Source of the DNA: Acidimicrobiia bacterium
Lineage (GTDB): Bacteria > Actinomycetota > Acidimicrobiia > IMCC26256 > JAENVU01
DNA: 64,000 nt
NCBI GenBank assembly: GCA_031430375.1
Contig: JANPBJ010000149.1
Span: 16,776-80,775, forward strand
Reading direction: 5' to 3'
Under the pieces are notes generated by a model. That model saw only the letters and a list, made by a program, of their open reading frames with translations. It did not search any database and had not been told where the DNA came from. Positions 7,484 to 45,509 of this stretch are shown piece after piece. Numbering within the stretch: position 1 is the first letter of the stretch; each line of letters starts with the position of its first letter. A program made the translations under genes and the position numbers.

Positions 7484-7654
7484 GTCAACATCCGCCTCGG
7501 GTTCATACCGGCCGGGACGCTACCCGCCGACCTGACGAGCCATCAGATCGTCGGAGGGAGAGCGTCGAGGGGAGCGGGTCGAAGGACGACCGTGAACGTT
7601 GACCGAGTTCTGGGCGGGAGGAGACGCCCGAACCACTGGCGCGAAATCGGCGCG

Positions 7655-7760
7655 GGCCGATGTCAGATGACGTGACGCCTGGGTGGCCGTGCGACCTCGC
7701 TGACGAGCGCTTGTCGGATAAGTGGCGGTCAGCACCACCCACGCGACAAGCAGTCGCGGG
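7655..7760 (+). repeat. interspersed ~100-nt repeat, copy A (TTGTCGGATA box plus CGCGAC-AAGCA-GTCGCG hairpin)
   Basis: The 52-nt core 7681..7732 is 49/52 identical to the reverse complement of 23321..23372. Flanking TGACGTGACGCCTGGGTGG and the hairpin at 7742..7758 are also shared with locus B. Confidence 0.85.
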
Positions 7761-7820
7761 GGCCAGGTGTCATGAACGAACGCCTGGTTGACGCGATCGA
7801 TCGAGCGACGCCGAATCTGG

Positions 7821-7870
7821 CGTTCGTTGTCCGTACGTCCCTCCAGGGAAGGGAATCCGCACAATGAACA
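7821..7870. repeat. 50-nt hairpin element, copy P (10-bp AT-rich stem CGTTCGTTGT / ACAATGAACA)
   Basis: Same length and arms as 30268..30317. The interior starts CCGTA and ends CGC in both copies, with an inner hairpin TCCCT-ccaggga-AGGGA. Confidence 0.7.
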
Positions 7871-8075
7871 GCGCAGACGCGTCGCCGTTGTGGAGTGTGA
7901 TTGCCATTGGCGCTGCCGTAGACCCGCCCCGCGTGTCCTGCCACCAGCGCCAACGACACGCAAGCAGGCGTCGACCGACCCAGTGTGTGGGCCGCTTGAC
8001 CCATTTTCTCCGGTTTTCGACCCATATAGGGTGCTTCGCCAGGGATCGCAGGCGGCCGGTTGAAGGGGCACGAAC

Positions 8076-9947: not shown

Positions 9948-9984
9948 AACCCCGCGAACTAAAACCCCGCGAACTAAAACCCGC
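9935..9984. repeat. 15-bp tandem repeat CCCCGCGAACTAAAA x3.3 spanning the stop codon of the PKD gene
   Basis: Read directly at 9935-9949, 9950-9964 and 9965-9979, plus a partial fourth unit. Each unit re-encodes P-A-N-stop in the gene frame. Confidence 0.85.
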
Positions 9985-12800: not shown

Positions 12801-13225
12801 GCGCTCACCGGCTTCCATTGCCAGATCACGAACTCACTGTCGTCGTCTTCGAAGAGGGTGCCCAGCGTGAGTTCAACTTCGGTCCCCACGGTGAGAGAAG
12901 CGGGGTCGAACTCGGGTGCCAGCGGCCCGAGCACCACCATCTGCTCGTCGGCGAGCTCGACCGCCACCACGGTGTACGGCACAAACGGGTCCGCGGCTAC
13001 ATACGGGGCGGGGGGTTGATAGTGGTTGGTAGTCCATGACCAGACCCGACCACGCCGGGAGAGCTCAACCTCCTCGAGTTCTTCGGTGGGCGCGGCAGGA
13101 TTGCGCGAGAAGGCCAGGTTCTTCGGGAAGAAGAAACTGCCGGTCTCCGCACCCCGACTCGCGAGCAGTGCGGGCTCGTCGCCGAGGGTGAACCAGCCAT
13201 CAACGGCGGCAACTCGGGTCTTCAT
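12797..13225 (-). CDS. DUF35 OB-fold protein (partner of SCP-x thiolase), Zn-ribbon cysteines absent
   Basis: 142 aa with the typical RGRVWSWTTNHY...YTVVAVELADE OB-fold core. The whole protein contains no Cys, so the usual CxxC...CxxC ribbon is degenerate. Confidence 0.75.
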   Translation of the reverse strand: MKTRVAAVDGWFTLGDEPALLASRGAETGSFFFPKNLAFSRNPAAPTEELEEVELSRRGRVWSWTTNHYQPPAPYVAADPFVPYTVVAVELADEQMVVLGPLAPEFDPASLTVGTEVELTLGTLFEDDDSEFVIWQWKPVSA

Positions 13226-13468
13226 GGCGGGGCAGCCTACAGAGCCAATCCCCGGAATCGTTCGGTCGGGGCGGTCGCCTCCGACGCGGCAATCACGGGC
13301 CCCAACTCGGCGGCGATCTGGCGGACCTACGCCAGGTACTTGGCGTTGATCCCCGTCTTCACCTCGAAGGGTTGTGTGGATTTTGTTGTCGGGATGTCGT
13401 GCAAACCTGACACGGGCGTCATACGATGCGCGAGCGGCGCCGGGGGGCCCGCACCAGGGGGTCGAAGC

Positions 13469-15064
13469 ATGAAGGTACGACGTCAGACAACGTTGCGGAC
13501 CGCGATCGTCGCCGGTATCGCGATCGGGACCGCGGTCCTGACCGGCTGCACTGGAGCCGATAGCAGCGGCGGGGGTGGTGACAACCTCCGCTATGGGTAC
13601 GACCTGGAGACCCAGTTCACCAACACCTTCGACCCGGGTGGGAAGAACGGGTCGACCGGTGATTGCGACACGATCGTGACGTCGTTCATCTACGACGGCC
13701 TACTGCGGCGCGACCAGGCAACCGGCGAGTCGATCCCCGGCATCGCGACGAGTTGGGAGGTGACCGGCGACGAGAAGCGCTCGATCACGTTCCACCTGCG
13801 TAACGACGTCGAGTTCTCCGACGGCGAGAAGCTCGATGCGGCTGCGGTGAAAGCGAGCTTGGATCACAACAACGAGAACGACCAACTTTCGGGGCTCGAC
13901 CACATCGACAATGTCGAGGTCGTGGATTCAACGACGGTCACGGTCAACCTCAAGGACGACCAGTCGACGCCGTTCATCTACAACATGGGCGCCGGGCGCG
14001 ACGGTCAGATCCTGTCGCCGAAGTCACTCAAGACCGCGGCCAAGAAGCCGGTGGGGTCGGGACCGTTCATGCTCGAGAGCTTCACGCCCGGCCAGGGCAT
14101 GGTGCTGGTCAAGAACCCGAAGTACTGGGACACCCAGAGCTATGACTTCCCCGGCATCGAGTTCGTGCAGGCCGGTACCGGACCGCCGGCAGTCCTGCGG
14201 TTCAAGGCCGGCGACCTCGATCTCGTGCGGTTCGAAGCCGAATCGCTGCCAGTCCTGCGCAAGGATGCCAACGCCAATGTGGTGATCAAGGCCACCGAGG
14301 CGTACCTCCAGTTTCAATTCCGGCTCGGCTACAACGACGGACGGACCACCCCGTTCGCGAATCCGCTCGTCCGTAAGGCGGTGCGGTTCGCGATCGATCC
14401 GAAGAAGATCAACGATCTCGTGCAACTCGGTGAAGGCGCGATCGCCACCCAGGCTCTTCCCGAGGAGTCGCCCGGTTACAACGGCGACATCGCAGATGAC
14501 TACGCCTATGACCCGGACGAGGCGAAGCGGTTGCTGACCGAGGCCGGTTACCCGGACGGGTTCGAGTTCACGATGGTGATCCCCGGTCCGGGCATCGAGA
14601 ACATGAACCGACAGGGCGAGCTCCTGCAAAACATGCTCGCGGATGTCGGGATTACCGCGAAGATCGTTCCGGTGCAAGGCAACGACATCGCGACCAACTA
14701 CTACATCAGCGGTGGCGGCGACGCGTTTGCCGCCGCGCGGTTGGCATCGAGCTTTTACCCCGGCGCGTACTTCGACCAGTTCGGCAAGTTCCAGTTCGTT
14801 CCAATCTGGAACAAGGCGCAGCGAGACGATATTGATGACCTCACGCTCCGAGCCCAGGGTTCGAAGGACCCCGCGGAGACTGCCCGGTTGACCCAGGAGG
14901 CGGCCAAGATCGTGAGCGACGAGGCGCTCGAAGTGCCGATCGCGTTCATGCCGCAGTTCCTCGCCACGGCGAAGGATCGCGTCGGTGGGGTCGTCGGCGG
15001 TCAGCGCAACATTTGTGACCCGCCCGATCTCTCGGGCTTGAAGATGAAGGCCGGGAAGACTTAG
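13469..15064 (+). CDS. ABC transporter substrate-binding lipoprotein, family 5 (peptide/nickel type)
   Basis: Track ORF 13340..15064. The likely start is ATG 13469 (MKVRRQTTLRTAIVAGIAIGTAVLTGCTG, lipobox LTGC) with AGGGGG 8 nt upstream. SBP_bac_5-like body. Confidence 0.85.
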   Translation: MKVRRQTTLRTAIVAGIAIGTAVLTGCTGADSSGGGGDNLRYGYDLETQFTNTFDPGGKNGSTGDCDTIVTSFIYDGLLRRDQATGESIPGIATSWEVTGDEKRSITFHLRNDVEFSDGEKLDAAAVKASLDHNNENDQLSGLDHIDNVEVVDSTTVTVNLKDDQSTPFIYNMGAGRDGQILSPKSLKTAAKKPVGSGPFMLESFTPGQGMVLVKNPKYWDTQSYDFPGIEFVQAGTGPPAVLRFKAGDLDLVRFEAESLPVLRKDANANVVIKATEAYLQFQFRLGYNDGRTTPFANPLVRKAVRFAIDPKKINDLVQLGEGAIATQALPEESPGYNGDIADDYAYDPDEAKRLLTEAGYPDGFEFTMVIPGPGIENMNRQGELLQNMLADVGITAKIVPVQGNDIATNYYISGGGDAFAAARLASSFYPGAYFDQFGKFQFVPIWNKAQRDDIDDLTLRAQGSKDPAETARLTQEAAKIVSDEALEVPIAFMPQFLATAKDRVGGVVGGQRNICDPPDLSGLKMKAGKT

Positions 15065-15095
15065 GTCTCGGTCTAGGTCGAGGAGCGCAGGAACA

Positions 15096-16043
15096 GTGGG
15101 GGCCTATGTAGCGCGCAGGCTCGGCGCTCTGGTCCCGCTGCTCGTCATCATCTCGTTCATTGTCTTCTCGCTCTCGCAACTGTTGCCCGGAGATCCGGCG
15201 ATCGTGCTCGCCGGTGGACAGAAGGCCACCCCGGAGGGCATCGCGCGCGCCCGCGAGAAGCTGCACCTGGACGAATCGTTCGTCGAGCAATACATCATCT
15301 GGCTCGGCGACACCGCGCAGGGTGATCTCGGTGAATCGTTCTTCGACCACCGTACCGTGGCGGAGTCCATCTCGAGTCGGTTTCCGGTCACGCTGTCCCT
15401 TGCGCTCGGTGCCTTGTTCTTGACGGTCCTCATCGGGGTTCCGCTCGGCATCCTGGCCGCGGTACGCCAAGGCGGCATCGTCGACCGACTCATCACCATG
15501 GTGTCGAGTGTCGCGCTCGCGATGCCGGACTTCTGGTTGGGAATGATCCTGATCTCGCTGTTTGCCGTGACCTTCCGGGTGCTGCCGTCGGGCGGCTATG
15601 AGGGACTGTTGAGCTCTCCAGCCGGGTGGGCCACCCACCTCTACCTGCCCTGGATCGCGATGGGTATCCCCGGCGGAGCGGGCCTGGCTCGCCAGGTCCG
15701 GGGCGCGATGATCGACGCGTTGGAACAGGACTACATCCGCACGGCCGAGTCCAAGGGGTTGCGACGGCGGGTGGTGGTGTTCAAGCACGCATTGAAGAAC
15801 GCGTCCCTCGCGCCGGTGACGGTTCTAGGTATCGGCTTTGCCTACATGCTCGGCGGCTCCGTGATCATCGAACGCATTTTCACGTTGCCCGGCATGGGCC
15901 AGTACTTCTTCATCGCGCTGTTCAAGAAGGACCTCCCCGTGATCCAAGGGGTCGTCCTCCTCAGCGCGTTGATCTTCGTCGTCCTCAATCTCGTCGTGGA
16001 TGTCCTGTACGCCTACCTCAACCCGAAGGTCAGGTTGGGATGA
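15096..16043 (+). CDS. ABC transporter permease (DppB/OppB-like)
   Basis: 315 aa, multi-TM, with the EAA-type loop YIRTAESKGLRRRVVVFKHALKNA. Confidence 0.9.
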   Translation: MGAYVARRLGALVPLLVIISFIVFSLSQLLPGDPAIVLAGGQKATPEGIARAREKLHLDESFVEQYIIWLGDTAQGDLGESFFDHRTVAESISSRFPVTLSLALGALFLTVLIGVPLGILAAVRQGGIVDRLITMVSSVALAMPDFWLGMILISLFAVTFRVLPSGGYEGLLSSPAGWATHLYLPWIAMGIPGGAGLARQVRGAMIDALEQDYIRTAESKGLRRRVVVFKHALKNASLAPVTVLGIGFAYMLGGSVIIERIFTLPGMGQYFFIALFKKDLPVIQGVVLLSALIFVVLNLVVDVLYAYLNPKVRLG

Positions 16044-16933
16044 CGGACGCAGCGCTGGAGCCCGACAAGCAGCTGGATGCGACCGGGCCCTCCCCGTGGG
16101 GCCGTGTCCTACGGCGCTTCGTGCGGAGCGGTCCGGCGATGACCGGGCTCGTGATCGTGGTGCTGCTGGTCTTGACGGCCCTGTTCGCGTCCGTGCTGGC
16201 GCCTTACGGTCAGGGCCCGGACTTCGAACCCGATCTCGGTCCAACGGCCAAGCATTGGCTCGGGACGAACAGCATCGGCCGGGACCTGCTGACGCGGCTG
16301 ATCTATGGCGCCCAGTCGTCGATGTTCGTCGCGTTCTTGGTCGTCACGATCGCAACGTCGATCGCGCTGGTGCTCGGATTGGTATCCGGCTATTTCGGCG
16401 GCTGGGTCGGCGCGGTCATTGACCGGTGTATGGACGCGCTGTTCACCTTCCCGCCGTTAACCCTCGCCCTGGCGATCGCCGCGCTGCTCGGCCCGAGCCT
16501 CACCAACGCGTCGCTTGCGATCGCGGTGGTCTTCGTCCCGGGGCTGATGCGGGTCATTCGTTCTCAAGTCCTGGCGGTTCGGGAGGAGTCGTTCATCGAG
16601 GCGGCTCGTTCGGTGGGGGCCAAGGATGCTCGGATGCTGCGCAAGCATGTACTGCCGAATGTGGTCTCTCCTGTGATCGTGCAGGCCGCGCTGGCCTTCG
16701 GGTACGCCATCAGCGCCGAGGCCGGCCTCTCGTTTCTCGGTTTGGGCGTGACCCAACCGACATCGAGCTGGGGCGTGATGTTGGCAGAGGCCTACGCCAA
16801 GATCCTCGAGTCCCAGTGGCTCCTGGTGCCTCCGGCGTTCGCGATTCTGTTGGCGATCCTCGCGTTCAACCTGGTGGGCGACGGCCTCCGCGACGCCCTC
16901 GGCCGTGAAGCCATCGCCGTGGAAGGACCGTGA
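16040..16933 (+). CDS. ABC transporter permease (DppC/OppC-like)
   Basis: 3' part of track ORF 15626..16933. ATG 16040 overlaps the upstream stop (ATGA). Sequence: MTDAALEPDKQLD...FIEAARSVGAKDARMLRKHVLPN. Confidence 0.9.
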   Translation: MTDAALEPDKQLDATGPSPWGRVLRRFVRSGPAMTGLVIVVLLVLTALFASVLAPYGQGPDFEPDLGPTAKHWLGTNSIGRDLLTRLIYGAQSSMFVAFLVVTIATSIALVLGLVSGYFGGWVGAVIDRCMDALFTFPPLTLALAIAALLGPSLTNASLAIAVVFVPGLMRVIRSQVLAVREESFIEAARSVGAKDARMLRKHVLPNVVSPVIVQAALAFGYAISAEAGLSFLGLGVTQPTSSWGVMLAEAYAKILESQWLLVPPAFAILLAILAFNLVGDGLRDALGREAIAVEGP

Positions 16934-19050
16934 CCGTGAGCGCGAGCGAGGTGCCGCTGCTAGAGGTCGTGGATCTCACAGTTGAGTTCGGTACCTCGGC
17001 TGGCACGGTGCGTGTCGTCGATGGTGTGAGCTTCGCGGTCAATCGCGGTCAGACCCTCGGTCTCGTCGGTGAGAGTGGTTGCGGGAAGAGCGTCTCCTCC
17101 CTCGCAGTCATGGGACTGATCCCGCGGCGGAACGCTCGCGTCCGTGCAACTACGCTCCGGTTAGGCGACCATGACCTCCGGACCATCGGCCACGCAGAGC
17201 TCCGCGCACTACGGGGTCCCGAGATGGCAATGATTTTCCAGGAACCGATGACGAGCCTGAACCCGGCGTTCACCGTCGGCAATCAGATCGCCGAGACGGT
17301 ACGCGCCCACCAGCGCGTCGGACGTTCGGCCGCCAATGCCAAGGCCGTGGAGATGCTCGACCGCGTAGGGATTCCCGATCCACACCGGCGGGTCAAGGAC
17401 TATCCGCACGCGTTCTCGGGAGGGATGCGGCAGCGGGCAATGATCGCGATGGCGCTGGCCAACGATCCGAAGTTGCTGATCGCGGATGAACCCACCACTG
17501 CGCTCGACGTCACGATCCAGGCTCAGATCCTCGAGCTGCTCCGGACCCTGCAACACGAGACCGGCATGGCGATCGTCTTCGTGACTCACGATCTCGGCGT
17601 GGTCGCCGACATCTGTGACCGGGTGGTGGTGATGTACGCGGGCCAGGTGGTGGAGGAGTCACCGCTCGACCCGCTGTACGCGTCACCCCGGCATCCGTAC
17701 TCCGCTGGGCTCCTGGCGTCGATGCCCCAAACCGCCTTGCCCGGCCAGCCGCTCACCGTCATTCGCGGTCAGGTCCCGAGCCCGCAGGATTGGCCCCATG
17801 GATGCCGGTTCGCCGAGCGTTGCGACCATTCCGAGCCTCGTTGTGTGGAGGATCCGGTGGCATGGACCGCAATGGCCGACGCCGGAGTCCGTTGCGCGCG
17901 CGCGGAGTCCATCACACTCGTTGGCACGGCCGAGCTCGGCGGATCGCGAACGAATTCGGCGCGTGGAGATTCGGCTCGGGGGGATTCGGCCGGTGTGGAT
18001 CCGGCTCGTGCGCCCGCGGATGCACTGGTCTCGGTCGTCGGTCTCGCCAAGGCGTTTCCGGTGCGCAGCGCGTTGTTGCGACGTCAGCTCGGCCTTGTGC
18101 GTGCCGTCGACGGTGTGGACTTCGAGATCGCCGCCGGGGAGACGCTGGGATTGGTCGGCGAGTCGGGGTCGGGCAAGTCCACGGTGGCGCGGCTCGTGTT
18201 GCGGTTGATCGAGCCGAGTGCAGGAAGGGTCTTGGTGGCCGGACTGGATGTCACGGCGCTCGCAAAGGGGCCCTTACGTAACGCACGCGGCGAGATGCAG
18301 ATGGTGTTTCAAGACCCCTACTCGTCACTCGATCCGCGCCAGACCATCGCCGAGGCGATCGGGGAGCCGATCGAAGTTCACCGCGGTGTGAAGGGCCGCG
18401 TGCGTGACCAACGCGTCACCGAGTTGCTTGCGCACGTGGGAATCGGCGCCGACGCCCTCCGCCGGTATGCGTACGAGTTCTCGGGCGGGCAACGTCAGCG
18501 CATCGCGATCGCTCGCGCGCTCGCCCTGGACCCGAAGCTCGTGGTGCTGGACGAACCGGTCTCATCCCTCGATGTGTCGACCCAATCGCAGGTGATCAAC
18601 CTACTCATCGATCTTCAGGATCGGCTCGGTCTCACGTATCTGTTCATCGCGCACGATCTTTCGGTCGTCCGCCATATCTCGGATCGCATCGCGGTGATGT
18701 ACCTCGGCCGTATCGTCGAGCAGGGACCGGCGGAAGAGGTCTATACCCGCCCGCGCCACCCCTACACCGAGGCGTTGCTCTCCGCGATTCCGCTTCCGGA
18801 TCCCCACTATCAACGCAACCGGCCGCGTATTGTTCTGCACGGCGATGTGCCCAGTCCGCTTGCGCCACCTTCCGGCTGCCGGTTCCGAACTCGGTGCCAG
18901 TACGCGATGGACGTGTGTGCGCACGAAGATCCCCCGGCGTTCAGTGCGCCGGGAGGAACCACGGTGGCGTGCCACTTGCACACCACCGGTCCCCAACTCG
19001 CAGGCGAACCCGTCACCGGGCTGGCCGTCGGGACAGGGACGCCACGGTGA
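16930..19050 (+). CDS. fused double ABC ATPase (DppD-DppF fusion)
   Basis: 706 aa with a GTGA overlap. Two Walker A motifs ([16 protein letters not shown]), two signature motifs ([16 protein letters not shown]) and two oligopeptide C-terminal domains ([16 protein letters not shown]). Confidence 0.9.
17953..18012 (+). repeat. degenerate 15-bp in-frame tandem repeat (4 units) in the inter-ATPase linker
   Basis: Units aattcggcgcgtgga / gattcggctcggggg / gattcggccggtgtg / gatccggctcgtgcg, encoding [20 protein letters not shown]. Confidence 0.7.
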
Positions 19051-19082
19051 CATGCGACCACGGTCGCAGAATGGGGAGAGAC

Positions 19083-19562
19083 ATGACCAAGTGGATGCGA
19101 CTGGTTGCCTGCTCCGGCGCGCTCGTGCTGGTGCTCGCGGCCTGCGGTAGCGACGACAAGAAGACGGACACACCACCCAAGACTGATCCGCCGACCACGA
19201 CCACGGAAGCGAAGTCCACGCTCATCGCGACCGCGGAGCCGACAACAGACCTCGCGGCCGGGACGACGGTCACGGTGAAGGTCGCCGGGTTCACCGCGGG
19301 CAAGACACTCGGGATCAACGAGTGCGCCCAAGCCGGAGAGGCCGAAGTCGGCCAGGCCGACTGTGATATCGGCGCGATCAAGGTCCTGACAGTGGGTGCC
19401 GACGGGACCGGCGAGGGAACGATCGCGGTCTCGAAGGGACCGATCGGTCAGAACGCGCACCTGTGTGGAACGCCGGACGTCCGGTGCTTCCTCAGTGTGG
19501 GTGAGCTGATCGAGGGTGAGTCCGAACGCGCCGAGGACATCGATCTGACGTTCGCGCCGTAG
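19083..19562 (+). CDS. neocarzinostatin-family (apo-chromoprotein fold) lipoprotein
   Basis: 3' part of track ORF 18894..19562. ATG 19083 is preceded by GGGGAGAG. Lipobox LVLAAC. The body TVTVKVAGFTAGKTLGINECAQ...CDIG...ADGTGEG...LCGTPDVRCFLSVG...IDLTFA follows the four-Cys pattern of neocarzinostatin/macromomycin apoproteins, as I recall them. Confidence 0.6.
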   Translation: MTKWMRLVACSGALVLVLAACGSDDKKTDTPPKTDPPTTTTEAKSTLIATAEPTTDLAAGTTVTVKVAGFTAGKTLGINECAQAGEAEVGQADCDIGAIKVLTVGADGTGEGTIAVSKGPIGQNAHLCGTPDVRCFLSVGELIEGESERAEDIDLTFAP

Positions 19563-19656
19563 CCGGATTGGTCAGCTGAAGAGGGCGGCGTGGGTGACCC
19601 GTGCGAGCCACGTCGCGAGCGCGGTGTAAGCCAGGGTGTCCTAAAACTGAACGCGC

Positions 19657-20634
19657 TCAGCCCGCAGCGCGCCGCACGGCATCCATCAGCCGCGCGACCT
19701 CCCGACCGTCGGCGAAGCTCGGCGTCTCGGCGCCAATCTCTCCCGAGCGGACCGCATCTCGCACGACCAGAGCCCACGCGGTCATCGCCACGAGATGCGG
19801 ATCGCGATTCCCCGAGTGGGGGCTGCTCCACTCGTCGCGCGAACCATCCCCGCATCGCATGACCACACTGCGATCCGCAACGATCTCCGCCACCGCGTGT
19901 GAGCCGGAGAGGAGGACGCGGGGTGCGACGGACGCGGCCGCCGCAAACGTGGAGTCGATCGCGACCGTTGCACCCGCATTCGTGACCAACCCGGCTCGAA
20001 ACGTGTCGTCCGCATCGCAGGGTCGGGGCTGCCCGCCAGCATCGGTACGTACAGGGATCTGAGTCTGAAGCTCGGCCCGGGTGACCACAAGATCCCCGAT
20101 CCACCAACGCAGCGTGTCGAGCGCATGGGAACCCCACGCGCCCAGCCAGCCTCCACCCGCGGCCCGTTCGAACAACCAACCCGCGGGTCGCAACGGCACC
20201 CGAGACCAGCTGCTGAAGTGGCTCCACGCGACGTGCTCGATGTCTCCGATCGTTCCCGCGCGAAGGAGTTCCCGAACGTGGACGCGCGCCGGTTCGTGAC
20301 GAAACTCGAAGTTCAACAGCGCGACCAGGCCCGTTGATTCGGCTGCGGCCACCATCCGTTCGGCGTCACCGAGGTTGCAACCAAAGGGTTTGTCGCACAG
20401 GACCGCATGCCGACCCGCCAGCGCGAGCTCCACGTGCTCCGCGTGCAGGAACGGCGGCGAATGCACCGACACGAGGTCGAGGTCCGGTCGTCGGCACAGC
20501 GCAGCCACCGCACTGGCATCGCGCGCTGAGACCACTTCCACCACGTCGCATCCGTCGGCGGCCGAGAACACCGGCGCGACCACCCGCGCGCCGAAGCCGG
20601 TGCCAATCACGCCAATGCGCAGCGCGGCACTCAT
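19657..20634 (-). CDS. Gfo/Idh/MocA family oxidoreductase
   Basis: 325 aa with the N-terminal Rossmann motif LRIGVIGTGFGARV and CDKPF. Confidence 0.8.
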   Translation of the reverse strand: MSAALRIGVIGTGFGARVVAPVFSAADGCDVVEVVSARDASAVAALCRRPDLDLVSVHSPPFLHAEHVELALAGRHAVLCDKPFGCNLGDAERMVAAAESTGLVALLNFEFRHEPARVHVRELLRAGTIGDIEHVAWSHFSSWSRVPLRPAGWLFERAAGGGWLGAWGSHALDTLRWWIGDLVVTRAELQTQIPVRTDAGGQPRPCDADDTFRAGLVTNAGATVAIDSTFAAAASVAPRVLLSGSHAVAEIVADRSVVMRCGDGSRDEWSSPHSGNRDPHLVAMTAWALVVRDAVRSGEIGAETPSFADGREVARLMDAVRRAAG

Positions 20635-20683
20635 TCGGCGAAGGTGGCCGACGGATCGGGGATGTTCGACGGCACCGGTGCGT

Positions 20684-21430
20684 TCACATCCGAGATGATC
20701 GCAGACCGGCGGCCGAGGCGGGTTCCAGGAATATGTGTGCGTGCGGCGTTCGCTGCATGATGGACGCCGGGCAGGCGGTGGTCATCGGACCTTCCAACGC
20801 GGCCGCGACCGGAACCGACTTTCGCGCGTCGGGGGCGATGACCATCACCGATCGGGCCCGGAGCAATGCGGGAATCGTGACCGTGATCGCCCGCGGCGGA
20901 ACCTGCGCCACCGTCGGGAAGTGGCCCTCGCCCACTTGTTGATTGCGGCACGCAAGATCCAGGTCGACGATCTTCACATCGAGCGGATCGGCAAAATCCG
21001 CGACGGGTGGATCGTTGAACGCGAGATGTCCATTCTCGCCGATGCCCATCACACAGAGATCCAAAGGGTTGTCGTGGAGCAGCCCCGCGTACCGAACGCA
21101 CTCGGTCTCCGTGGGCGCGAGACCGTCGATGAGATGAAAGGCCCGCGGCGACACGCGGCCCACAATCCGGTCGCGCATGTATCGAGCGAAGCTCGCCGGG
21201 TGATCGGCGCCGATCCCGACGTATTCGTCCATGTGGAATCCGATGACTCGGTCCCACTCGACTCGGCTCGACCCCACGAGCACATCGAGGAACGCCAACT
21301 GCGAGTTCCCCGATGCGAACATCACGTGCGCAACACCGCGTGCGCTCACCGCCGCCGCGATCGCTTCCACCGCGAACACCGCCGCGGCCCGTGCGAGCGC
21401 GTTCGGATCGGCCAGAACGTGGACGTTCAC
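20684..21430 (-). CDS. glucosamine-6-phosphate deaminase / 6-phosphogluconolactonase family protein (NagB-like)
   Basis: Track ORF 20684..21475. The family-consistent start is GTG 21430 (VNVHVLADPNALARAAA). Motifs FASGNSQL, GFHMDEY, MGIGENGHLAFNDP. Confidence 0.75.
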   Translation of the reverse strand: MNVHVLADPNALARAAAVFAVEAIAAAVSARGVAHVMFASGNSQLAFLDVLVGSSRVEWDRVIGFHMDEYVGIGADHPASFARYMRDRIVGRVSPRAFHLIDGLAPTETECVRYAGLLHDNPLDLCVMGIGENGHLAFNDPPVADFADPLDVKIVDLDLACRNQQVGEGHFPTVAQVPPRAITVTIPALLRARSVMVIAPDARKSVPVAAALEGPMTTACPASIMQRTPHAHIFLEPASAAGLRSSRM

Positions 21431-21437
21431 GGTTTCG

Positions 21438-22811
21438 TCACGCGAATTGCGGGAGCCACTCGGCGGTGGCGCCAAGCAGCTCGTCGGTCATGCGCTCCAA
21501 GGCCTCGAAGGCGATACGGCCCGCCAACGGGTCGGCGTGCATCGCAGCCAGGACCACGTCTCGATCCCCGGTGACGCCTGCCTCCACGGTGAGCTCCTGG
21601 GCGACCGAGACCCGGCGGAGCTGTTCGGCCAGCACCGTCGGCGCAATCGCTCGATCGCGCCCGCGCATGCCAGCACCGTCGACGGTGCAGATGCTCTCGA
21701 CCACAACGGCGTCGGGGAGGTCGGGGCATTGACCGGCGTTCGGCAGGTTGAGCGGGAGGTCCCGACGGTGACCGGTGATCAGCGAATCGATCGCGGCGGC
21801 CACCAGCTCGCCCGATGGCACCCGCGAGACCTCGGGGGTTGCGAACATCGCGTCGAGATCCGTGGCGTGCCCAACTTCAGACCGTTCGCGATCCTCGATC
21901 GTGGTGAGACGCACTCCCCACCGTTCACCCCACCCGGATTCGGCGGTGAGGAACCCGGGGAAGAACTCGGCGAGGTGACGGTCGCCCGCACCCGGGAGCG
22001 CTCCGAACCGTCGGAACAGATCGAACTTCAGGCGATTCGCGGCGATCAGATCGCCCTTGGTCCAGTGCTCACCCGGGGTCGGCTTTGCGAGGCCCAAACC
22101 TTCGGGAAGGTCCATCGCCAGCCGTTCGTCGGCGCGCCCGGGATCATCGAGGAGCTCGGCAAGGAGCTCGAAACCGTCGCGTCCTCCCACGGTGGCGCGC
22201 GTGACGATGGGAAAGTGATTGACGCCCGTGATCTCGAGATCAATGGATCGAAAGTCCACCTCGAGGAGGAGTGACAGGAGGAACTGCAACACCGTCACCT
22301 CGTGGCACAGGCCGACCGTGCGAATCGACGACTCACGCGTGACCGCGCGACAGATCGTGGTCATCGGATTCGTGATGTTGAGCATCCACGCGTCGGGACA
22401 CAGCTCCTCCATGTCCGCTGCGATACCGAGAAAGATCGGGATGTTGCGCAGCGCGCGCGTGATCCCTCCCGGACCGACCGAATCGCCGACGCTCTGCTCG
22501 ATCCCGAAACCGCGCGGGATTTCCAAGTCGTGACGCATGCTCGCGAACCCGCCGGTGGAAATGGTGACGACCACGTAGTCCGCACCGCCGAGCGCGTCAC
22601 GTTGATCGGTACTCGTGCGCACCGACAACGGGATGGACCGCCGCGCGGCCACGTGTTCCACCCACTCCGCCATCCGCGGCAACGGCGCCGGGTTGATATC
22701 GACGAGCACGATCTCGGCCCCAACCAGCGAGGGCGTGTTCGCGACGTCCACCACGAGATTGGGCACCCACTGGTAGCTCCCGCCGCCGATGACCACAATC
22801 CGCGGGCTCAC
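21438..22811 (-). CDS. glycoside hydrolase family 4 (NAD/Mn-dependent glycosidase)
   Basis: Track ORF 21438..22931. The family-typical N-terminus VSPRIVVIGGGSYQW starts at GTG 22811 with GAGG upstream (ATG 22853 is an alternative). Motifs NITNPMT and GLCHEV. Confidence 0.8.
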   Translation of the reverse strand: MSPRIVVIGGGSYQWVPNLVVDVANTPSLVGAEIVLVDINPAPLPRMAEWVEHVAARRSIPLSVRTSTDQRDALGGADYVVVTISTGGFASMRHDLEIPRGFGIEQSVGDSVGPGGITRALRNIPIFLGIAADMEELCPDAWMLNITNPMTTICRAVTRESSIRTVGLCHEVTVLQFLLSLLLEVDFRSIDLEITGVNHFPIVTRATVGGRDGFELLAELLDDPGRADERLAMDLPEGLGLAKPTPGEHWTKGDLIAANRLKFDLFRRFGALPGAGDRHLAEFFPGFLTAESGWGERWGVRLTTIEDRERSEVGHATDLDAMFATPEVSRVPSGELVAAAIDSLITGHRRDLPLNLPNAGQCPDLPDAVVVESICTVDGAGMRGRDRAIAPTVLAEQLRRVSVAQELTVEAGVTGDRDVVLAAMHADPLAGRIAFEALERMTDELLGATAEWLPQFA

Positions 22812-22851
22812 GTCAGCCTCGCTCTTGGCCCTGCCGGCCGGGCCGCTCCGC
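22812..22851 (-). repeat. leader/intercistronic element copy Z (short form), directly 5' of the GH4 start
   Basis: Sense strand reads GCGGAGCGGCCCGGCCGGCAGGGCCAAGAGCGAGGCTGAC then GTG. It shares the GCGGAGCGG box and the GGCCCGGCC...CAGGGCCAAGAG core with copies X and Y. Confidence 0.65.
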
Positions 22852-22878
22852 ATTCGGCGTGGCGTTGCCGCTGGACAC

Positions 22879-23331
22879 TCAGGATCCTTGCGATCCAGGG
22901 TCGAGGAGGGACTGCAAACCACCGTGCACATGACGAAGGTAGGCCGGACTCTCCCACGCCGCGGGGAAATGACCCAAGGCGGTTGTCAACACCCGGCCGG
23001 ATCCTTCGGAGAAACTCCAGGCGACGGGATATCCATAGGCGGGCGGTCGGGCGCCCTCCGCCGTCAGATCCAACTGTTCGACTGGGACCCGCACCAGGAT
23101 GTGCGCATCCGGTCGAAGGTCCCGAAATTGATACACCTCGTCGTGCCAACGCCACCGCGACCCGAGATGCGCCGTCGCCGGATGGCTCGCATCCACCACT
23201 TCGAGATCCACGGTCTGCGTCCAGGGATGCCCGTCGAAACGCGCGCCGACGATACGGCCGAGTCCTCCCAGCCGTGGCACGCATCGGCCGCCGCGTGGAT
23301 CGCGACGGCTTGTCGCGCGGGTGACCGCCAC
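22879..23331 (-). pseudogene. ThuA-domain protein, 5'-truncated fragment
   Basis: The 150-aa ORF carries only the C-terminal ~130 aa of a ThuA-like fold (FDGHPW...HPATAHL...DEVYQF...GRVLTTALGH...YLRHVHGGLQ). The N-terminal ~80-90 aa of the family are missing. The first ~20 codons of the ORF run into repeat copy B. Confidence 0.5.
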
Positions 23332-23505
23332 TTATCCGACAAGCGCTCGTCAGCAAGGTCGCACGGCCGCCCAAGGGCGCGGTCAGCACACCGACCCGGC
23401 GACCGTTTGTCGCCTGGGTGGCGCTCACCGATTGAATCCGCCGCCAGCTATCCGACAAACGCACCGGGGAGTGGGAGCTCCTCCACCCAAGCGTCACGTC
23501 ACTCG
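23299..23505 (-). repeat. interspersed ~100-nt repeat, locus B (two tandem units B1 and B2)
   Basis: B1 at 23299..~23375 has core 23321..23372 and hairpin CGCGAC-GGCTT-GTCGCG at 23301..23317. B2 at ~23376..23505 has box TATCCGACAAACGC at 23449..23462 and hairpin GGCGAC-CGTTT-GTCGCC at 23398..23414. Both are inverted relative to copy A. Confidence 0.8.
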
Positions 23506-23676
23506 AACGGGCTGCGTTCCGCGGAACGCATCGCCACCTGCGAACGCCCCAAGCGACACCGGCTCGATCACCACAACCGTGCGGGCCATGGTCTGACGGT
23601 TCTCCATTGCCATGAGTCCCGCAGGGAGGTCGGCAAGATCGACTTCTGGCTCGCGTGCCCGCATCGTTGCGATCAT
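23494..23676 (-). CDS. hypothetical small protein (60 aa), possibly a remnant of an MDR/zinc-dehydrogenase C-terminus
   Basis: Internal ATG of track ORF 23494..23886, preceded by a strong SD (CCGGAGGTCCCC-ATG), 14 nt after the ipdC-like stop. The peptide MIATMRAREPEVDLADLPAGLMAMENRQTMARTVVVIEP resembles the C-terminal strand of quinone-oxidoreductase-type proteins. The 3' end lies in repeat B. Confidence 0.3.
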   Translation of the reverse strand: MIATMRAREPEVDLADLPAGLMAMENRQTMARTVVVIEPVSLGAFAGGDAFRGTQPVRVT

Positions 23677-23690
23677 CGGGACCTCCGGAG

Positions 23691-24764
23691 TCAGACGGAT
23701 CCGAGGCGAGCCAAGGTTTCGGTGGCTTCGCGCATCACGCGTTCGATGATGGTGGCGACTGTGGGCAACTCGTCGACGACGCCGACTACCTGGCCGGTGG
23801 GCAACACCCCGGTGTCGAGCCGGCCGTCGACCAACGCGGCCTTCGTGAGCATCGGCGCGTTGGCGGCCATAGCCACCTGAGCCCAACTCAAGCCCTGGCT
23901 CTTCTTCATCGCGATGCCTTCTTGCGCGAGGTCACGCAGGGACCGTCCGCTCAGCGACCGGAACCGCAGCGCGTTCGCGAGTGATCGAGGCAGCGCGCTG
24001 ATCCGACCCGCTCCGTCGAGATGGTCGACGAGTTCCGTGCGGATCACGCGCTGCGGATGCCCGTCGACCTGCTTGGTAACAACGGTGTCGGTGACCGACG
24101 CTTCGAGATACCGGGCTTTCACTGCGTCGGGTACCCGGCTCTCCGCAGAGAGGAGGAACCGTGTCCCCATCGCGATCCCGGACGCTCCGTACGCGAGCGC
24201 GGCGACCAGCCCGCGACCATCGAAGAACCCACCGGCCGCGATGACCGGGATGTCGACCGCGTCACACACTTGCGGCAGGAGCAGCGAGGTCGGGACCGTC
24301 CCGGTATGCCCGCCGCCTTCCGCACCCTGGGCGATCACTGCGTCGACACCCCACTCGGCCACCTTCTCGGCGTGGCGCCGAGCGCCGACCGTCGGTATCA
24401 CAACCACTCCCTGGTCCTTGAGCGTCTTCACCAACCGCTCGCCCGGAGCCTGAGCGAAGCTCGCGACCTTCACGCCCTCTCGCACCATCAGGCCGATGCG
24501 GTCGTCGACATCCGGTTGATCCGAACGCAGGTTCACGCCGAACGGCTTGTCGGTCCGGTCCTTCACCGACGCGATCGCGGTCGTGAGTTCGGGCACGCTC
24601 ATCGTGGCGCTGGCGAGGATGCCGAGCCCACCGGCCGCACTCGTCGCCGCGGTGAGCCGGGCGCCGGCGACCCAGCCCATCCCCGTCTGGACGATCGGGA
24701 ACTCCACGCCGAACAGCTCACACGCGCGGGTATGCAACGCCGCGTTGGTCGGGCCGCCGCTCAT
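23691..24764 (-). CDS. ipdC: NMO-family FMN enoyl reductase (nitronate monooxygenase fold), IpdC-like
   Basis: 357 aa. Motifs FPIVQTGMGWVA and AQGAEGGGHTG. It is the last gene of a hydratase / CoA-transferase A / CoA-transferase B / NMO operon, the same order as M. tuberculosis Rv3550-Rv3553. Confidence 0.7.
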   Translation of the reverse strand: MSGGPTNAALHTRACELFGVEFPIVQTGMGWVAGARLTAATSAAGGLGILASATMSVPELTTAIASVKDRTDKPFGVNLRSDQPDVDDRIGLMVREGVKVASFAQAPGERLVKTLKDQGVVVIPTVGARRHAEKVAEWGVDAVIAQGAEGGGHTGTVPTSLLLPQVCDAVDIPVIAAGGFFDGRGLVAALAYGASGIAMGTRFLLSAESRVPDAVKARYLEASVTDTVVTKQVDGHPQRVIRTELVDHLDGAGRISALPRSLANALRFRSLSGRSLRDLAQEGIAMKKSQGLSWAQVAMAANAPMLTKAALVDGRLDTGVLPTGQVVGVVDELPTVATIIERVMREATETLARLGSV

Positions 24765-24813
24765 CCCTCCCCCTCTTGGCCCTGCGGGCCGGGCCGGTCA
24801 GGCCCCGCTCCGC
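24765..24813 (-). repeat. leader/intercistronic element copy X, directly 5' of the ipdC-like start
   Basis: Sense strand reads GCGGAGCGGGGCCTGACCGGCCCGGCCCGCAGGGCCAAGAGGGGGAGGG then ATG. It is 39/42 identical to copy Y over the first 42 nt. Confidence 0.8.
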
Positions 24814-24849
24814 CTGCCGGGCGCGGCCGCAGCTGCCGTACGGCGTCGC

Positions 24850-25623
24850 TCATGGGTTCGGCACTTCCTTGTCCCGGAGACCGTGCGGGTCGATGACCTC
24901 GCGGATCAGCTCGAGTTCGTCCGGGGTGGGTGCCCGGGTCTCGGGGACATCGCTCGGCATCGCGAGTTCGAACCCGGTCGCGGCCACGATGTCGTCGACG
25001 CTCACCCCGGGATGCACCGACCGCAACCGCATGTGGTGATCCTCGGTCTCGAAATCGAGTACACCAAGATTGGTCACCACATGACGCAAGCCGTGGAACC
25101 GACCCGCCGCACCCAGCTTCGCGGCCCGGTCGTATCCGACACCCGTGACCACATCCACCTTGGGCACGAACACCCGGGCTGAGTGATTGGGAATCCAGTA
25201 GCTCGTGATGTTCTGGATCGTGTTCCCAGCTGCGCCACGGAAGCCCAGTAACTGCGCCTTGGGCTGGTCCCAGTCGCCGACGAAGGCAAAGTTCTGGTTG
25301 CCGAACGCGTCGATCTGGCTGCCACCCATCATCACGTGGCGGCGACCCGACCACACCAAGTCAAACATCGAGCGATACGGATTCCACGCTTCGATCGTCT
25401 TGGGCTGATCCGTCGGACCCACCGGGTAGGGGCCGGCGATGAGCAGCGCCTCGCCGTCGGTCATGACGAGGTCGGGCGAGAAACTCGCGCGGGCCAACCG
25501 TCCCCCGATCATCGGGACGGTGCCGATCGGATTGCACAGAATCTCGCCGTCGCCGCGGAAACATTCCGCCACCGCGATCACGCAGTACTCCGCGCGGGTG
25601 ATGAGATCGTTGGTACTGCTCAT
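24850..25623 (-). CDS. ipdB: CoA-transferase subunit B (IpdB-like)
   Basis: Track ORF 24850..25788. The real start is ATG 25623 (MSSTNDLITRAEYCVIAVAECFRGDGEILCNPIGTVPMIGGRLA), typical of 3-oxoacid/glutaconate CoA-transferase beta subunits. Confidence 0.7.
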   Translation of the reverse strand: MSSTNDLITRAEYCVIAVAECFRGDGEILCNPIGTVPMIGGRLARASFSPDLVMTDGEALLIAGPYPVGPTDQPKTIEAWNPYRSMFDLVWSGRRHVMMGGSQIDAFGNQNFAFVGDWDQPKAQLLGFRGAAGNTIQNITSYWIPNHSARVFVPKVDVVTGVGYDRAAKLGAAGRFHGLRHVVTNLGVLDFETEDHHMRLRSVHPGVSVDDIVAATGFELAMPSDVPETRAPTPDELELIREVIDPHGLRDKEVPNP

Positions 25624-25676
25624 ACACCTCTCCCGCTCTTGTGCCTTCGGCACAGGCCGCTCGGGCCCCGTTCCGC
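25624..25676 (-). repeat. leader/intercistronic element copy W, between CoA-transferase A and B genes
   Basis: Sense strand reads GCGGAACGGGGCCCGAGCGGCCTGTGCCGAAGGCACAAGAGCGGGAGAGGTGT then ATG. It has the same 5' box and the same CAAGAG-SD end, with a different perfect hairpin (TGTGCC-GAA-GGCACA) in between. Confidence 0.7.
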
Positions 25677-25715
25677 TGGCGTCTTGGCTGCAAGCGTCGT
25701 TACGTTCCGCTCCAC

Positions 25716-26585
25716 TTAGGCCCCGACCACCTTCCGGTATTCGTTGTGGTCGCCGCAGTCGAGATACTTCGCCCGCCACTCGTTCCACGCTTCGGGCGTC
25801 TTCGCGCTCGCGGCGTAGGCGCGTTGGAACTCTTCGTCACGCGGGTAGTCGGGAACGCACTCGGTGAAGTGGGCGCCGTGCGGTGCCTCGATCACGCCGT
25901 CGGTCATCAAACGGTTGATCTTCAGCGACTGCACCGGTCCGCCCGCGGCCAAGTCGTCGGTGTCGACGATCTTCTCCACACTCATGAAGCGCCGATCGGC
26001 CGCCATGCAGAAGAGGTCGTCGAAATAGGGATCGACGTTGAGGTACTGACCGTTCCCGCGCCGATCGCCCCGGTGCATGTGAATCAGCGCAACATCCAGG
26101 TGCAGCGCCGGTGCGGCCACCAACTCCTCGCCGTCGTCATACGGCGAGACGACGGTGCGGATCTCGTCTTGGCGCTCGAGCAGATCGGAGCCGAGGCCCA
26201 CCCGGGTGGGGATGAATGGCACCCGCCACGCCGCGGCCTGCAGACCGAGCAGGAACATTCCCTCATCCATTTCGAGGGTGGAAACCGCACCGGCCTGACG
26301 CGCCTTCCGGAAATGCGGTTCGAGCGCGATCGAGTCGAGCGAGCAAAACGCGTAGACGGCCTTGCGCACCTTGCCGGTGGCGCACAACAAGCCGAGATCG
26401 GGGCCGCCGTAGGACACGACCGTGAGGTCTTTGACATCGCTCTGCGCGATCGCTCGCACGAGGCTCATCGGCTTCCGGCGTGAGCCCCAGCCGCCGATGC
26501 CGATCGTCATACCGTCGAGGAGCTCGGCGACCACATCCGCTTCGGTGACAACTTTCGAGGACGGCTGCGCCAAGGTGAGACTCAC
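25716..26585 (-). CDS. ipdA: CoA-transferase subunit A (IpdA-like)
   Basis: 289 aa. The GTG start overlaps the upstream stop (GTGA). Sequence DGMTIGIGGWGSRRKP, a typical alpha-subunit glycine-rich loop. Confidence 0.7.
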   Translation of the reverse strand: MSLTLAQPSSKVVTEADVVAELLDGMTIGIGGWGSRRKPMSLVRAIAQSDVKDLTVVSYGGPDLGLLCATGKVRKAVYAFCSLDSIALEPHFRKARQAGAVSTLEMDEGMFLLGLQAAAWRVPFIPTRVGLGSDLLERQDEIRTVVSPYDDGEELVAAPALHLDVALIHMHRGDRRGNGQYLNVDPYFDDLFCMAADRRFMSVEKIVDTDDLAAGGPVQSLKINRLMTDGVIEAPHGAHFTECVPDYPRDEEFQRAYAASAKTPEAWNEWRAKYLDCGDHNEYRKVVGA

Positions 26586-27452: not shown

Positions 27453-27501
27453 GCGGAACGGGGCCTGTCCGGCCCGGCCCGCAGGGTCAAGAGGACAAGC
27501 C
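27453..27501 (+). repeat. leader element copy Y, directly 5' of the SDR start
   Basis: GCGGAACGGGGCCTGTCCGGCCCGGCCCGCAGGGTCAAGAGGACAAGCC then ATG. It lies on the opposite chromosomal strand from X, W and Z, but like them is in sense orientation to its downstream gene. Confidence 0.8.
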
Positions 27502-28272
27502 ATGAGCGATGAACTGGACATGTCGGGCCGCGTCGTCCTGGTGACGGGAGGAGCGCGCGGGATCGGTCGCGGGATCGCCGAGGCGTTCCTCGGCCGAGGT
27601 GCGAACGTCATCGTGTGCGGTCGGACCGAGCCCGACGAGCTCCCGACAGCGGCCGCTCACTCCGCCGTCTTCCTCGCCGCCGACGTGCGTGACGCCGACG
27701 CCGTCGACGCGCTCGTGACCGAAACCGTGGCGCGGTTCGGACACCTCGACGTGTTGATCAACAACGCGGGCGGATCACCATGGGCCGACTCCGCGACGGT
27801 GTCGCCCAAGTTCTCGCGGTCGATCATCGAACTCAACCTGCTGGCGCCGCTCGTGTGCGCGCAACGCGCCAACGCGGTCATGCAAACCCAAGCCGACGGC
27901 GGTTCGATCATGAACATCGCGAGCGTGAGTGGACTACGACCATCGCCCGGCACCGCAGCGTACGGCGCGGCCAAGGCGGGGTTGCTCAACCTCACGCAAA
28001 CGCTCGCGGTCGACTACGCCCCGCTCGTTCGCGTCAACGCGGTGAGTGCAGGCCTGATTCGCACCGAGCAATCACATCTTCACTACGGCGACGAAGCCGG
28101 GATTGCCGCGGTCGGCGCGACGGTGCCGCTCGGGCGCATGGGGACTCCGGCCGACATCGCGAACGCGTGCATCTTCCTCGCGTCTCCGCTCGCGGCATAC
28201 GTTTCCGGAGCAAACCTCACCGTCCACGGAGGCGGCGAAGCCCCCGCCTACCTCGACGCCGCGAGCACTTGA
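27502..28272 (+). CDS. SDR family oxidoreductase
   Basis: 256 aa. Motifs VTGGARGIGRGIA, NNAG, YGAAKAG. It is divergent from the echA20-like gene, as Rv3549c/Rv3548c are in M. tuberculosis. Confidence 0.85.
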   Translation: MSDELDMSGRVVLVTGGARGIGRGIAEAFLGRGANVIVCGRTEPDELPTAAAHSAVFLAADVRDADAVDALVTETVARFGHLDVLINNAGGSPWADSATVSPKFSRSIIELNLLAPLVCAQRANAVMQTQADGGSIMNIASVSGLRPSPGTAAYGAAKAGLLNLTQTLAVDYAPLVRVNAVSAGLIRTEQSHLHYGDEAGIAAVGATVPLGRMGTPADIANACIFLASPLAAYVSGANLTVHGGGEAPAYLDAAST

Positions 28273-30267: not shown

Positions 30268-30317
30268 CGTTCATTGTCCGTATTCCACGGGTGGAGGGGA
30301 CAGACGCACAATGAACG
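30268..30317. repeat. 50-nt hairpin element, copy Q (perfect 10-bp stem CGTTCATTGT / ACAATGAACG)
   Basis: Located between the convergent stops of the amine oxidase (30237) and the SDR (30346). The interior CCGTA...CGC has an inner hairpin TCCA-cggg-TGGA. Same 10+30+10 layout as copy P. Confidence 0.7.
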
Positions 30318-30345
30318 CCAAATATGGGCGGGGTCGTCCCCCAGA

Positions 30346-45455: not shown

Positions 45456-45461
45456 CCCGCA

Positions 45462-45509
45462 GCGTTTGTCGAGCAGGTAGCGCTGAGCGCACACAATCCG
45501 ACAAGCGCC
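45462..45509. repeat. inverted pair of GCGYTTGTCG(GAT) boxes related to repeats A/B, between convergent genes
   Basis: GCGTTTGTCGAG at 45462..45473 and, on the other strand, GGCGCTTGTCGGAT at 45496..45509, with an internal GCGC-TGA-GCGC hairpin. Confidence 0.5.

Follow-up and report, generated by a model that had tools for sequence, protein, structure and literature searches.

REP/BIME elements, known from Enterobacteria and Pseudomonas and including the REPINs mobilised by the RAYT Y1 transposase, whose gene usually has REPs at its flanks, number tens to hundreds in each genome. Mycobacteria have MIRU-type interspersed minisatellites, 40-100-bp units arranged in tandem at dispersed intergenic loci within operons, with small ORFs that overlap the stop and start codons of adjacent genes. 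Together with MITEs (Correia/NEMIS, RUP) and integron attC sites, these are the described systems with which we compare a short intergenic repeat from an uncultured Acidimicrobiia bacterium. The repeat lies in a 64-kb stretch of DNA (hereafter the window; G+C 66%), where it is present in four copies, three of them full units and one hairpin-only. We see about an even chance that these copies are lineage-restricted, low-copy extragenic palindromic repeats of REP/BIME-like type.

The copies, their parts and an adjacent palindrome are as follows, with helices labelled P2 to P4:

7652-7759, + strand: unit A, a full unit (covariance model 82.5 bits)
7652-7686, + strand: left direct-repeat module of unit A, with TGGGTGG at its end (7680-7686)
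7707-7728, + strand: box of unit A
7709-7716 with 7744-7751, and 7722-7725 with 7735-7738: outer stem (P2) and inner stem (P4) of the long hairpin of unit A
7742-7747 with 7753-7758: P3 of unit A, the 6-bp hairpin of the original prediction, overlapping the 3′ arm of P2
7760-7792, + strand: partial second unit 3′ of A, the left module repeated and nothing else (GGGGCCAGGTGTCATGAACGAACGCCTGGTTGA)
23283-23396, - strand: unit B1, a full unit (66.1 bits), its core 96% identical to A and its left module degenerate (TTGGGCGG)
23325-23346, - strand: box of unit B1
23337-23344 and 23308-23315: P2 arms of unit B1, with P3 at 23301-23317
23397-23512, - strand: unit B2, a full unit (68.7 bits)
23483-23502: left module of unit B2 (GTGACGTGACGCTTGGGTGG)
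23441-23462, - strand: box of unit B2
23453-23461 and 23404-23412: P2 arms of unit B2, 9 bp, with T-A where A and B1 have C-G
23398-23414: P3 of unit B2, closed by a G-C pair in place of the C-G of A and B1
23513-23530: perfect 18-nt palindrome TGCGTTCCGCGGAACGCA, directly upstream of B2
45462-45509, - strand: copy C, hairpin only (62.1 bits)
45462-45471 (GCGTTTGTCG) with 45499-45508 (CGACAAGCGC): outer stem of copy C, 10 bp with one G-U pair on the + strand, enclosing an inner GCGC stem with a 3-nt loop

The repeat is real, and the similarity among its copies is far beyond chance. The longest inverted repeat of the window joins 7680-7731 to 23322-23373 (52 nt, 96%), which bears out the 52-nt core that the original prediction had assigned to loci A and B. 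The 22-nt box GCGYTTGTCGGATARNTGGCGG occurs three times in the window against 0.00 expected. Sensitive BLAST within the window matched A to B1 (80% over 106 nt, E 1e-20) and to B2 (68% over 124 nt, E 5e-11), and BLAST also matched A to 45456-45508, the place of copy C (76% over 55 nt, E 1.5e-4; nhmmer E 6.6e-5). A three-unit profile searched with nhmmer recovered the same four places and no others in the window. Likewise, a covariance model gave 62-82 bits to the four copies, which are the same ones used to build it, and at most 17 bits to the rest of the window. An independent Logan contig (L001, SRR20217180), in which the NMO (nitronate-monooxygenase-like, ipdC-like) protein is identical, contains B2 and the beginning of B1, differing by a single SNP; thus, the B array is not an assembly artefact. 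A weaker box had also been proposed at 13385, upstream of the ABC transporter. To match, it requires an indel; it lacks a partner arm and is missed by both nhmmer and the covariance model, and we attribute it to chance, as we do a weak BLAST match at 12943-12981 inside the ChsH2_C gene.

The alignment demonstrates that GCGYTTGTCG, the left part of the box, is complementary to a downstream CGACAARC in all copies. This partner consists of the 5′ half and the loop of P3, whose sequences read as originally predicted (CGCGAC-N5-GTCGCG in A and B1, GGCGAC-N5-GTCGCC in B2). The box had been described as a motif beside the hairpin; it is indeed conserved, but it is not separate, being the 5′ arm of an 8-10 bp stem. 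All four copies share one architecture, in which an outer stem P2 of 8-10 bp (arms GCTTGTCG / CGACAAGC) is followed by an internal loop, GAUAA-like on its 5′ side and CCNNG on its 3′ side, and by an inner stem P4 of 4-5 bp. The apical loop measures 3, 9, 18 or 3 nt across the four copies. Length differences are confined to this loop, the stems being free of indels, and the arms are complementary throughout at spacings of 21, 27, 27 and 40 nt. The stem is preceded on its 5′ side by GACGAGC, GGTGC or GCCGGC. Exactly four TTGTCG-N(21-40)-CGACAA pairs exist in the window, namely those of A, B1, B2 and C, against a shuffle mean of 0.4, and none in about 64 kb of relatives' DNA. The element at 45462-45509, predicted to be an inverted pair of boxes, is related to the units, but its two arms form the same long hairpin that every unit contains.

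The conserved core is therefore a hairpin of 45-60 nt, which the full units supplement with a 5′ module (GTGACGTGACGCYTGGGTGG) and a short hairpin on the 3′ side. Because the 3′ arm of P2 and P3 use the same CGAC bases, these two helices are mutually exclusive. A further candidate helix, P1 (TGGGTGG/CCACCCA), which competes with P4, is preserved in A and in B2, where it reaches 10 bp, and not in B1. At its boundaries each unit has an imperfect direct repeat some 30-38 nt long (GGSCSRNTGT..TGACGNGACGCYTGGGYGG), which yields head-to-tail arrays of about 1.35 units at A and about 2.2 units at B with a period of 106-116 nt, so the predicted repeat stands with units longer than the suggested length of about 100 nt. 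Conservation is block-wise: the box is retained at 19-22 of 22 positions and the stem arms are intact, whereas the spacers of B2 cannot be aligned with those of A and B1. The box of A and that of B1 each read as an imperfect palindrome, CTTGTC-G-GATAAG (an alternative fold in B1), which B2 and C lack.

The copies are related in a mosaic fashion. Across spacer, box and hairpin, A is almost identical to B1, while the 5′ module of A is identical to that of B2 at 18 of 19 positions and to that of B1 at 13 of 19, and the most divergent pair is formed by the neighbours B1 and B2. Judged from the alignments, such a pattern fits dispersal or conversion among members better than a recent local tandem duplication, and exchange of this kind hints that further copies may exist elsewhere.

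Structure statistics support the helices only weakly. Isolated hairpins from all four copies fold as an outer plus an inner stem, with dG from -16 to -23.5 kcal/mol; relative to shuffles, the hairpin of A (dG -20 kcal/mol) has a z of -3.2 and that of copy C a z of -3.3. Whole-unit folding, which the original prediction had put forward as a check, hardly does better than shuffles (z -0.02 to -2.7), and the minimum-energy fold alternates between P2+P4 and P1+P3 according to the strand and flanks. The covariation is anecdotal. In P2 a single position is compensated (C-G in A and B1, U-A in B2); there, copy C shows a mismatch on the unit strand and a G-U pair on the other. P3 likewise has one compensated pair, C-G in A and B1 versus G-C in B2. 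Neither is significant: for P2+P4, with four sequences, 240 of 500 shuffles equalled the observed value, and for P3, with three to four sequences, 132 of 500 did so, which removes the weight that had been placed on the compensatory change in the P3 stem. Arms that stay complementary despite a spacing of 21-40 nt, together with stems free of indels, make a better argument for the hairpin than covariation does.

All four copies lie between genes, in three settings (divergent, co-directional and convergent). A coding or gene-fragment origin was ruled out, as no reading frame is conserved among the units: the spacers differ by lengths not divisible by three, B1 is shifted in frame relative to B2, and A and B2 read through the hairpin region in different frames. 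Six-frame translations of A and B gave no match among 5.8 billion predicted proteins at E values up to 10, arguing against both a duplicated gene fragment, the alternative named with the original prediction, and copies hidden as spurious ORFs. Rfam returned no match over the window at the gathering score, and at E up to 10 its best match (E 0.098) was to a eukaryotic snoRNA model and represents noise. A remnant of a tRNA or att site was excluded because the window contains no tRNA or tmRNA genes. No sigma-70-like promoter consensus was found near the units. No T-tract follows any of the hairpins and the intrinsic terminator consensus was not found, which counts against a terminator role. The operator of KstR2, the TetR regulator of the ipd/fadE steroid regulon, is a 14-bp palindrome, AnCAAGnnCTTGnT (PMC3068626); no unit is among the 30 matches with at most two mismatches to it.

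The window contains a cluster of steroid-ring-degradation type, with ipdAB-like CoA transferases, NMO, enoyl-CoA hydratase, thiolases, several acyl-CoA dehydrogenases, an acyl-CoA ligase and a ChsH2_C protein, and homologues of NMO are annotated as uncultured Acidimicrobiia. The gene contexts are those originally described (divergent genes, downstream of the ipd-like operon, convergent genes). Both full loci lie in lineage-specific DNA:

7559-7985: lineage-specific block of 427 nt, holding unit A and an unrelated palindromic repeat (7822-7870)
13227-23656: lineage-specific island of 10.4 kb, encoding an Opp-type ABC transporter, a Gfo/Idh/MocA oxidoreductase, a NagB-like protein and GH4

The 427-nt block sits between the divergent genes for an acyl-CoA dehydrogenase and a PKD-repeat protein. 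One relative, L017, whose PKD protein is 85% identical, has a 978-nt block carrying an SDR gene between the same flanks, and conservation restarts at window position 7986, about 230 nt downstream of A. In L009 and L021 the entire spacer between these two genes measures 176 and 139 nt, respectively. Some 145 nt separate the B array from the right end of the 10.4-kb island, within which it lies. The distance from the NMO stop to the start of B2 is about 180 nt, and that from the end of B1 to the GH4 start is 368 nt. The island fills a hypervariable slot between the NMO and ChsH2_C genes, which is empty in L019 and L020, contains an alcohol dehydrogenase gene in L021, that gene and two others in L007, a cNMP-binding acetyltransferase gene in L009 and several kb of other DNA in L008; the sequence of L006 breaks off just past the beginning of this alcohol dehydrogenase gene. 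After the NMO stop, only the first ~34 nt of the window align with the relatives, corresponding to the start of the alcohol dehydrogenase gene. Remnants of the alcohol dehydrogenase and methyltransferase genes of L007 in the B spacer were considered and rejected, with no alignment beyond these ~34 nt and only noise in tblastx. Units A and B are co-oriented with the next downstream gene (the PKD-repeat secreted protein and the GH4 sugar operon, respectively), 316-368 nt away. Copy C is flanked by the stops of two convergent genes, that of a + strand oxidoreductase gene 7 nt before its start and that of an aminotransferase gene 27 nt past its end.

Orthologous places in the relatives are without the units, but the precise empty sites proposed as a check were not seen, since it is whole blocks (427 nt and 10.4 kb) that differ in the relatives. 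There is no target-site duplication at the loci and no hairpin copy at the other border of the 10.4-kb island. The window also holds two further families of short intergenic repeats, one of which shows clean filled/empty insertion polymorphisms, indicating that the lineage accumulates such elements. Of these, family 3 is nearer to the MIRU pattern than the hairpin repeat is.

To describe the distribution of the repeat, we used exact scans with GCGYTTGTCGGATANNTGGCGG against 185,579 species-representative (GTDB) genomes and JGI metagenome contigs, collections without the source genome. Four genome and four metagenome matches were obtained, all due to chance (unrelated taxa or coding, with dissimilar flanks), and thus a widespread family was ruled out for the collections searched; the scans demand an exact box, and diverged copies would escape them. 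Viral contigs contained no match to the box or to the 5′ module, and BLAST found none in plasmids and phages. The covariance model identified no members in 64 kb of relatives' DNA. Across the window and the relatives, nhmmer and the unfiltered covariance model revealed no diverged members beyond the four copies and one fragment in L008 (15837-15887). This fragment matches the 5′ module of B2 (the palindrome TGCGTTCCGCGGAACGCA plus GTGACGTGAYGCYTGGGTGG) at 82% identity and is without box and hairpin. The profile matches nothing else in 103 kb of orthologous sequence covering loci of nine relatives. The fragment is apparently non-coding, has the orientation of B2 with respect to NMO, and sits in the variable slot of L008 itself. 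Beyond the window, public matches are limited to the same strain (the Logan contig) and this partial 5′ module. Neither the GH4 nor the acyl-CoA dehydrogenase protein has an identical database entry that would point to another assembly of the strain. The L008 fragment indicates that the family, or at least one module of it, predates the species and is rare and restricted. The interspersed family originally predicted thus comes down to two full loci and one partial copy in 64 kb, with no more in the public collections searched, which exclude the source genome beyond the 64-kb window; within those data, this is the outcome that the original prediction had itself named as counting against it. In the literature, the motif appears only in unrelated papers, apparently as oligonucleotide sequences (judged by title), and we found none on REP elements in Acidimicrobiia.

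We then propose a model for the repeat as a REP/BIME-like element. The hairpin would form in RNA or in single-stranded DNA. The copies at gene 3′ ends, B after the ipd/NMO operon and C, could act as 3′-end stabilisers or terminator-insulator hairpins. Copies may have spread or been homogenised via recombination, gene conversion or a putative enzyme, and such spread would place them in recently remodelled intergenic DNA. A 3′-end role is at odds with copy A, which lies between divergent genes, where a hairpin of this kind has no obvious job. The whole-unit folds close to shuffles and the covariation of one event per helix also count against the REP-like reading. It is tempting to speculate further that the hairpin is the recognition site of a single-strand-DNA recombinase (HUH/Y1-like or other) and marks the borders of cassette-like gene exchange in Acidimicrobiia. 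This idea arises from the position of the full loci just inside lineage-specific DNA, at two hypervariable slots of a syntenic steroid-catabolic cluster, and from the module fragment that L008 retains in its own version of one slot; we consider it very improbable. A weaker variant would take the two mutually exclusive helices as a bistable RNA switch.

Alternatively, the copies might be functionless relics, that is, non-coding DNA duplicated or converted between sites 15.5 kb apart during the rearrangements of the island and the 427-nt block, and now decaying. Both full loci lie within lineage-specific DNA at rearrangement junctions, the copy number is very low with none in the searched collections, L008 has the fragment alone in seemingly degenerate non-coding DNA, and the structure statistics are weak. 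However, the block-wise conservation of the box and stem arms is unlike uniform neutral decay, copy C, 22 kb off, retains the hairpin alone and paired, and both variable stem positions show compensation. We regard decay from such a duplication as possible but unlikely. The conserved box, including its unpaired GGATA, is the best conserved block of the unit, and in A and B1 it has the palindromic form described above; with A and B co-oriented with the next downstream gene, this could suggest a lineage-specific protein that binds the box and/or the TTGTCG motifs (in both orientations) and controls the GH4 operon and the PKD gene. Several observations argue against such a binding module, and we find it improbable. 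The palindrome is missing from B2 and C, copy C lies between convergent genes where there is no promoter, and the PKD promoter is read as near 8000-8035, in the stretch conserved in L017 from 7986 onwards. The island is also without a regulator gene, and the units do not match the KstR2 motif within two mismatches. Furthermore, the arm spacing of 21-40 nt is not that of a simple dimeric operator, which, along with the three intergenic settings, agrees with the original preference for a structured non-coding repeat.

The overlap of the helices raises the question of whether the repeat is a structured RNA that adopts either of two incompatible folds (P2+P4 or P1+P3), acting as an sRNA or as a cis-acting switch. 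CGAC is common to P2 and P3, each of which has one compensatory change, the minimum-energy folds switch with strand and flanks, and P1 extends to 10 bp in B2. An RNA of this kind is nevertheless doubtful: Rfam gave nothing but noise at E values up to 10, no promoter-like or terminator-like signal is present, B1 lacks P1, copy C lacks both P1 and P3, and relatives do not share the element upstream of these genes. A REP/BIME-like repeat remains the reading that we prefer.

The window shows three short intergenic repeat families in Acidimicrobiia. These repeats mark spots of gene-content change between close relatives, they can break metagenome assemblies, and their variable-number arrays could serve as strain markers. 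Their importance is modest.

Compared with known systems, the repeat resembles integron attC sites in having an imperfect palindrome with a conserved outer stem, a variable centre and a variable length, located at borders of variable gene content. Unlike attC sites, it is without RYYYAAC / GTTRRRY cores, and no integrase is encoded in the window. With MITEs it shares a size of about 100-150 nt, a non-coding, hairpin-forming sequence and its absence from orthologous sites of relatives. However, its ends are imperfect direct repeats and not terminal inverted repeats, and it has neither target-site duplication nor precise empty site nor parent IS, so of the REP/MITE-like character suggested in the original prediction, the REP-like half is plausible and the MITE half is not. 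The fit to MIRU is loose: the host is also a member of the Actinomycetota, units of about 100 nt form short head-to-tail arrays at more than one intergenic locus, and the B array is co-oriented with its flanking genes, whereas the units lie 180-370 nt from coding sequence without stop/start codon overlap and contain a strong palindrome.

The Acidimicrobiia repeat differs from REP/BIME elements in several respects. Its hairpin is longer (45-60 nt) and its clustered copies are direct, not inverted. No GTAG-type tetranucleotide stands at the head of or beside the palindrome on either strand, no RAYT or transposase-like domain was found among 40 window proteins, and the known copies are three full and one hairpin-only (a density of four per 64-kb window), with none elsewhere in the searched collections; these points weigh against the REP-like reading. 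The likeness lies in a short imperfect palindrome that is strictly extragenic, that stands alone or in small groups having conserved linker modules, that is restricted to its species, and that is found at gene 3′ ends and points of genome plasticity. In this company, the repeat looks like an ordinary, species-specific kind of feature that does not challenge current understanding.

A second palindromic repeat family, which reads GTTCATTGTCCG..N24-26..CGCACAATGAAC, is present in two copies in the window:

7822-7870, copy 1, directly after unit A (a full copy of the ~110-base hairpin repeat) and within the 427-nt lineage-specific block
30268-30318, copy 2, between convergent genes

The two copies match at 71% over 89 nt (E 2e-7). 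The site of the second copy is occupied by a GGDEF/EAL gene in the orthologous contig L009 and by an unrelated G+C-rich spacer in L008. The place of unit A is taken in another relative, L017, by an SDR gene, which lies 3' of the following element:

L017 5090-5125, perfect palindrome AAACTATACGGGCGTATAGTTT, upstream of the SDR gene

This palindrome looks like a repressor operator.

The gene at 8076-9947 encodes a PKD-domain protein and is associated with two further sets of repeats:

9215-9854, five 141-nt (47-residue) repeats, inside the gene
9935-9982, perfect 15-nt tandem repeat CCCCGCGAACTAAAA, 3.2 copies

The tandem repeat covers the stop codon of the gene and the short spacer before a convergent acyl-CoA ligase gene. 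A GGYTLDGxGGLHPF-like motif characterises the 47-residue repeats, for which Pfam gave no match. In the homologue list, similar C-terminal repeats appear to be fused to M23 peptidase, CHAP, GH18 and GH25 domains, an arrangement suggestive of a cell-wall-binding module.

The slot between the nitronate-monooxygenase-like (NMO, ipdC-like) gene and ChsH2_C is hypervariable: among close relatives it holds anything from no DNA at all to several kb. The window contains at this slot:

13227-23656, 10.4-kb sugar-utilisation island, filling the NMO-ChsH2_C slot
23494-23676, minus strand, 60-codon ORF, beginning 15 nt past the NMO stop codon

The island encodes an Opp-type ABC transporter, a neocarzinostatin-family-like ORF, a Gfo/Idh/MocA oxidoreductase, a NagB-like protein and GH4, with no regulator or mobility gene within it. 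When the 60-codon ORF is compared with the zinc alcohol dehydrogenase located 3' of NMO in L006, L007 and L021, only the first few codons match (M..TMRA). The ORF is the stump of a gene that the island truncated. It ends at a stop codon within the 5' module of unit B2, another full copy of the hairpin repeat.

A third repeat family lies in the ipd cluster, where three genes each have a copy directly upstream:

24741-24848, copy 1, core 24758-24813
25610-25719, copy 2, core 25636-25676
27453-27508, copy 3, core 27453-27508

Its sequence, GCGGAACGGGGCC..GGCCCG..AAGAGG, precedes the start codon and supplies a ribosome-binding site to the three genes. Comparison with the orthologous loci of relatives reveals a clean filled/empty polymorphism. 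The ~93 nt in the ipdA-ipdB gap of the window are missing from L006, the closest relative. The ~98 nt in the ipdB-NMO gap are present in both the window and L006 and missing from L007, L008, L009 and L018-L021, in which ipdB and NMO overlap by 4 nt. The insert has (A/G)TGAGCG on each side. This third family is arguably of greater interest than the ~110-base hairpin repeat, and its pattern is MIRU-like or MITE-like.
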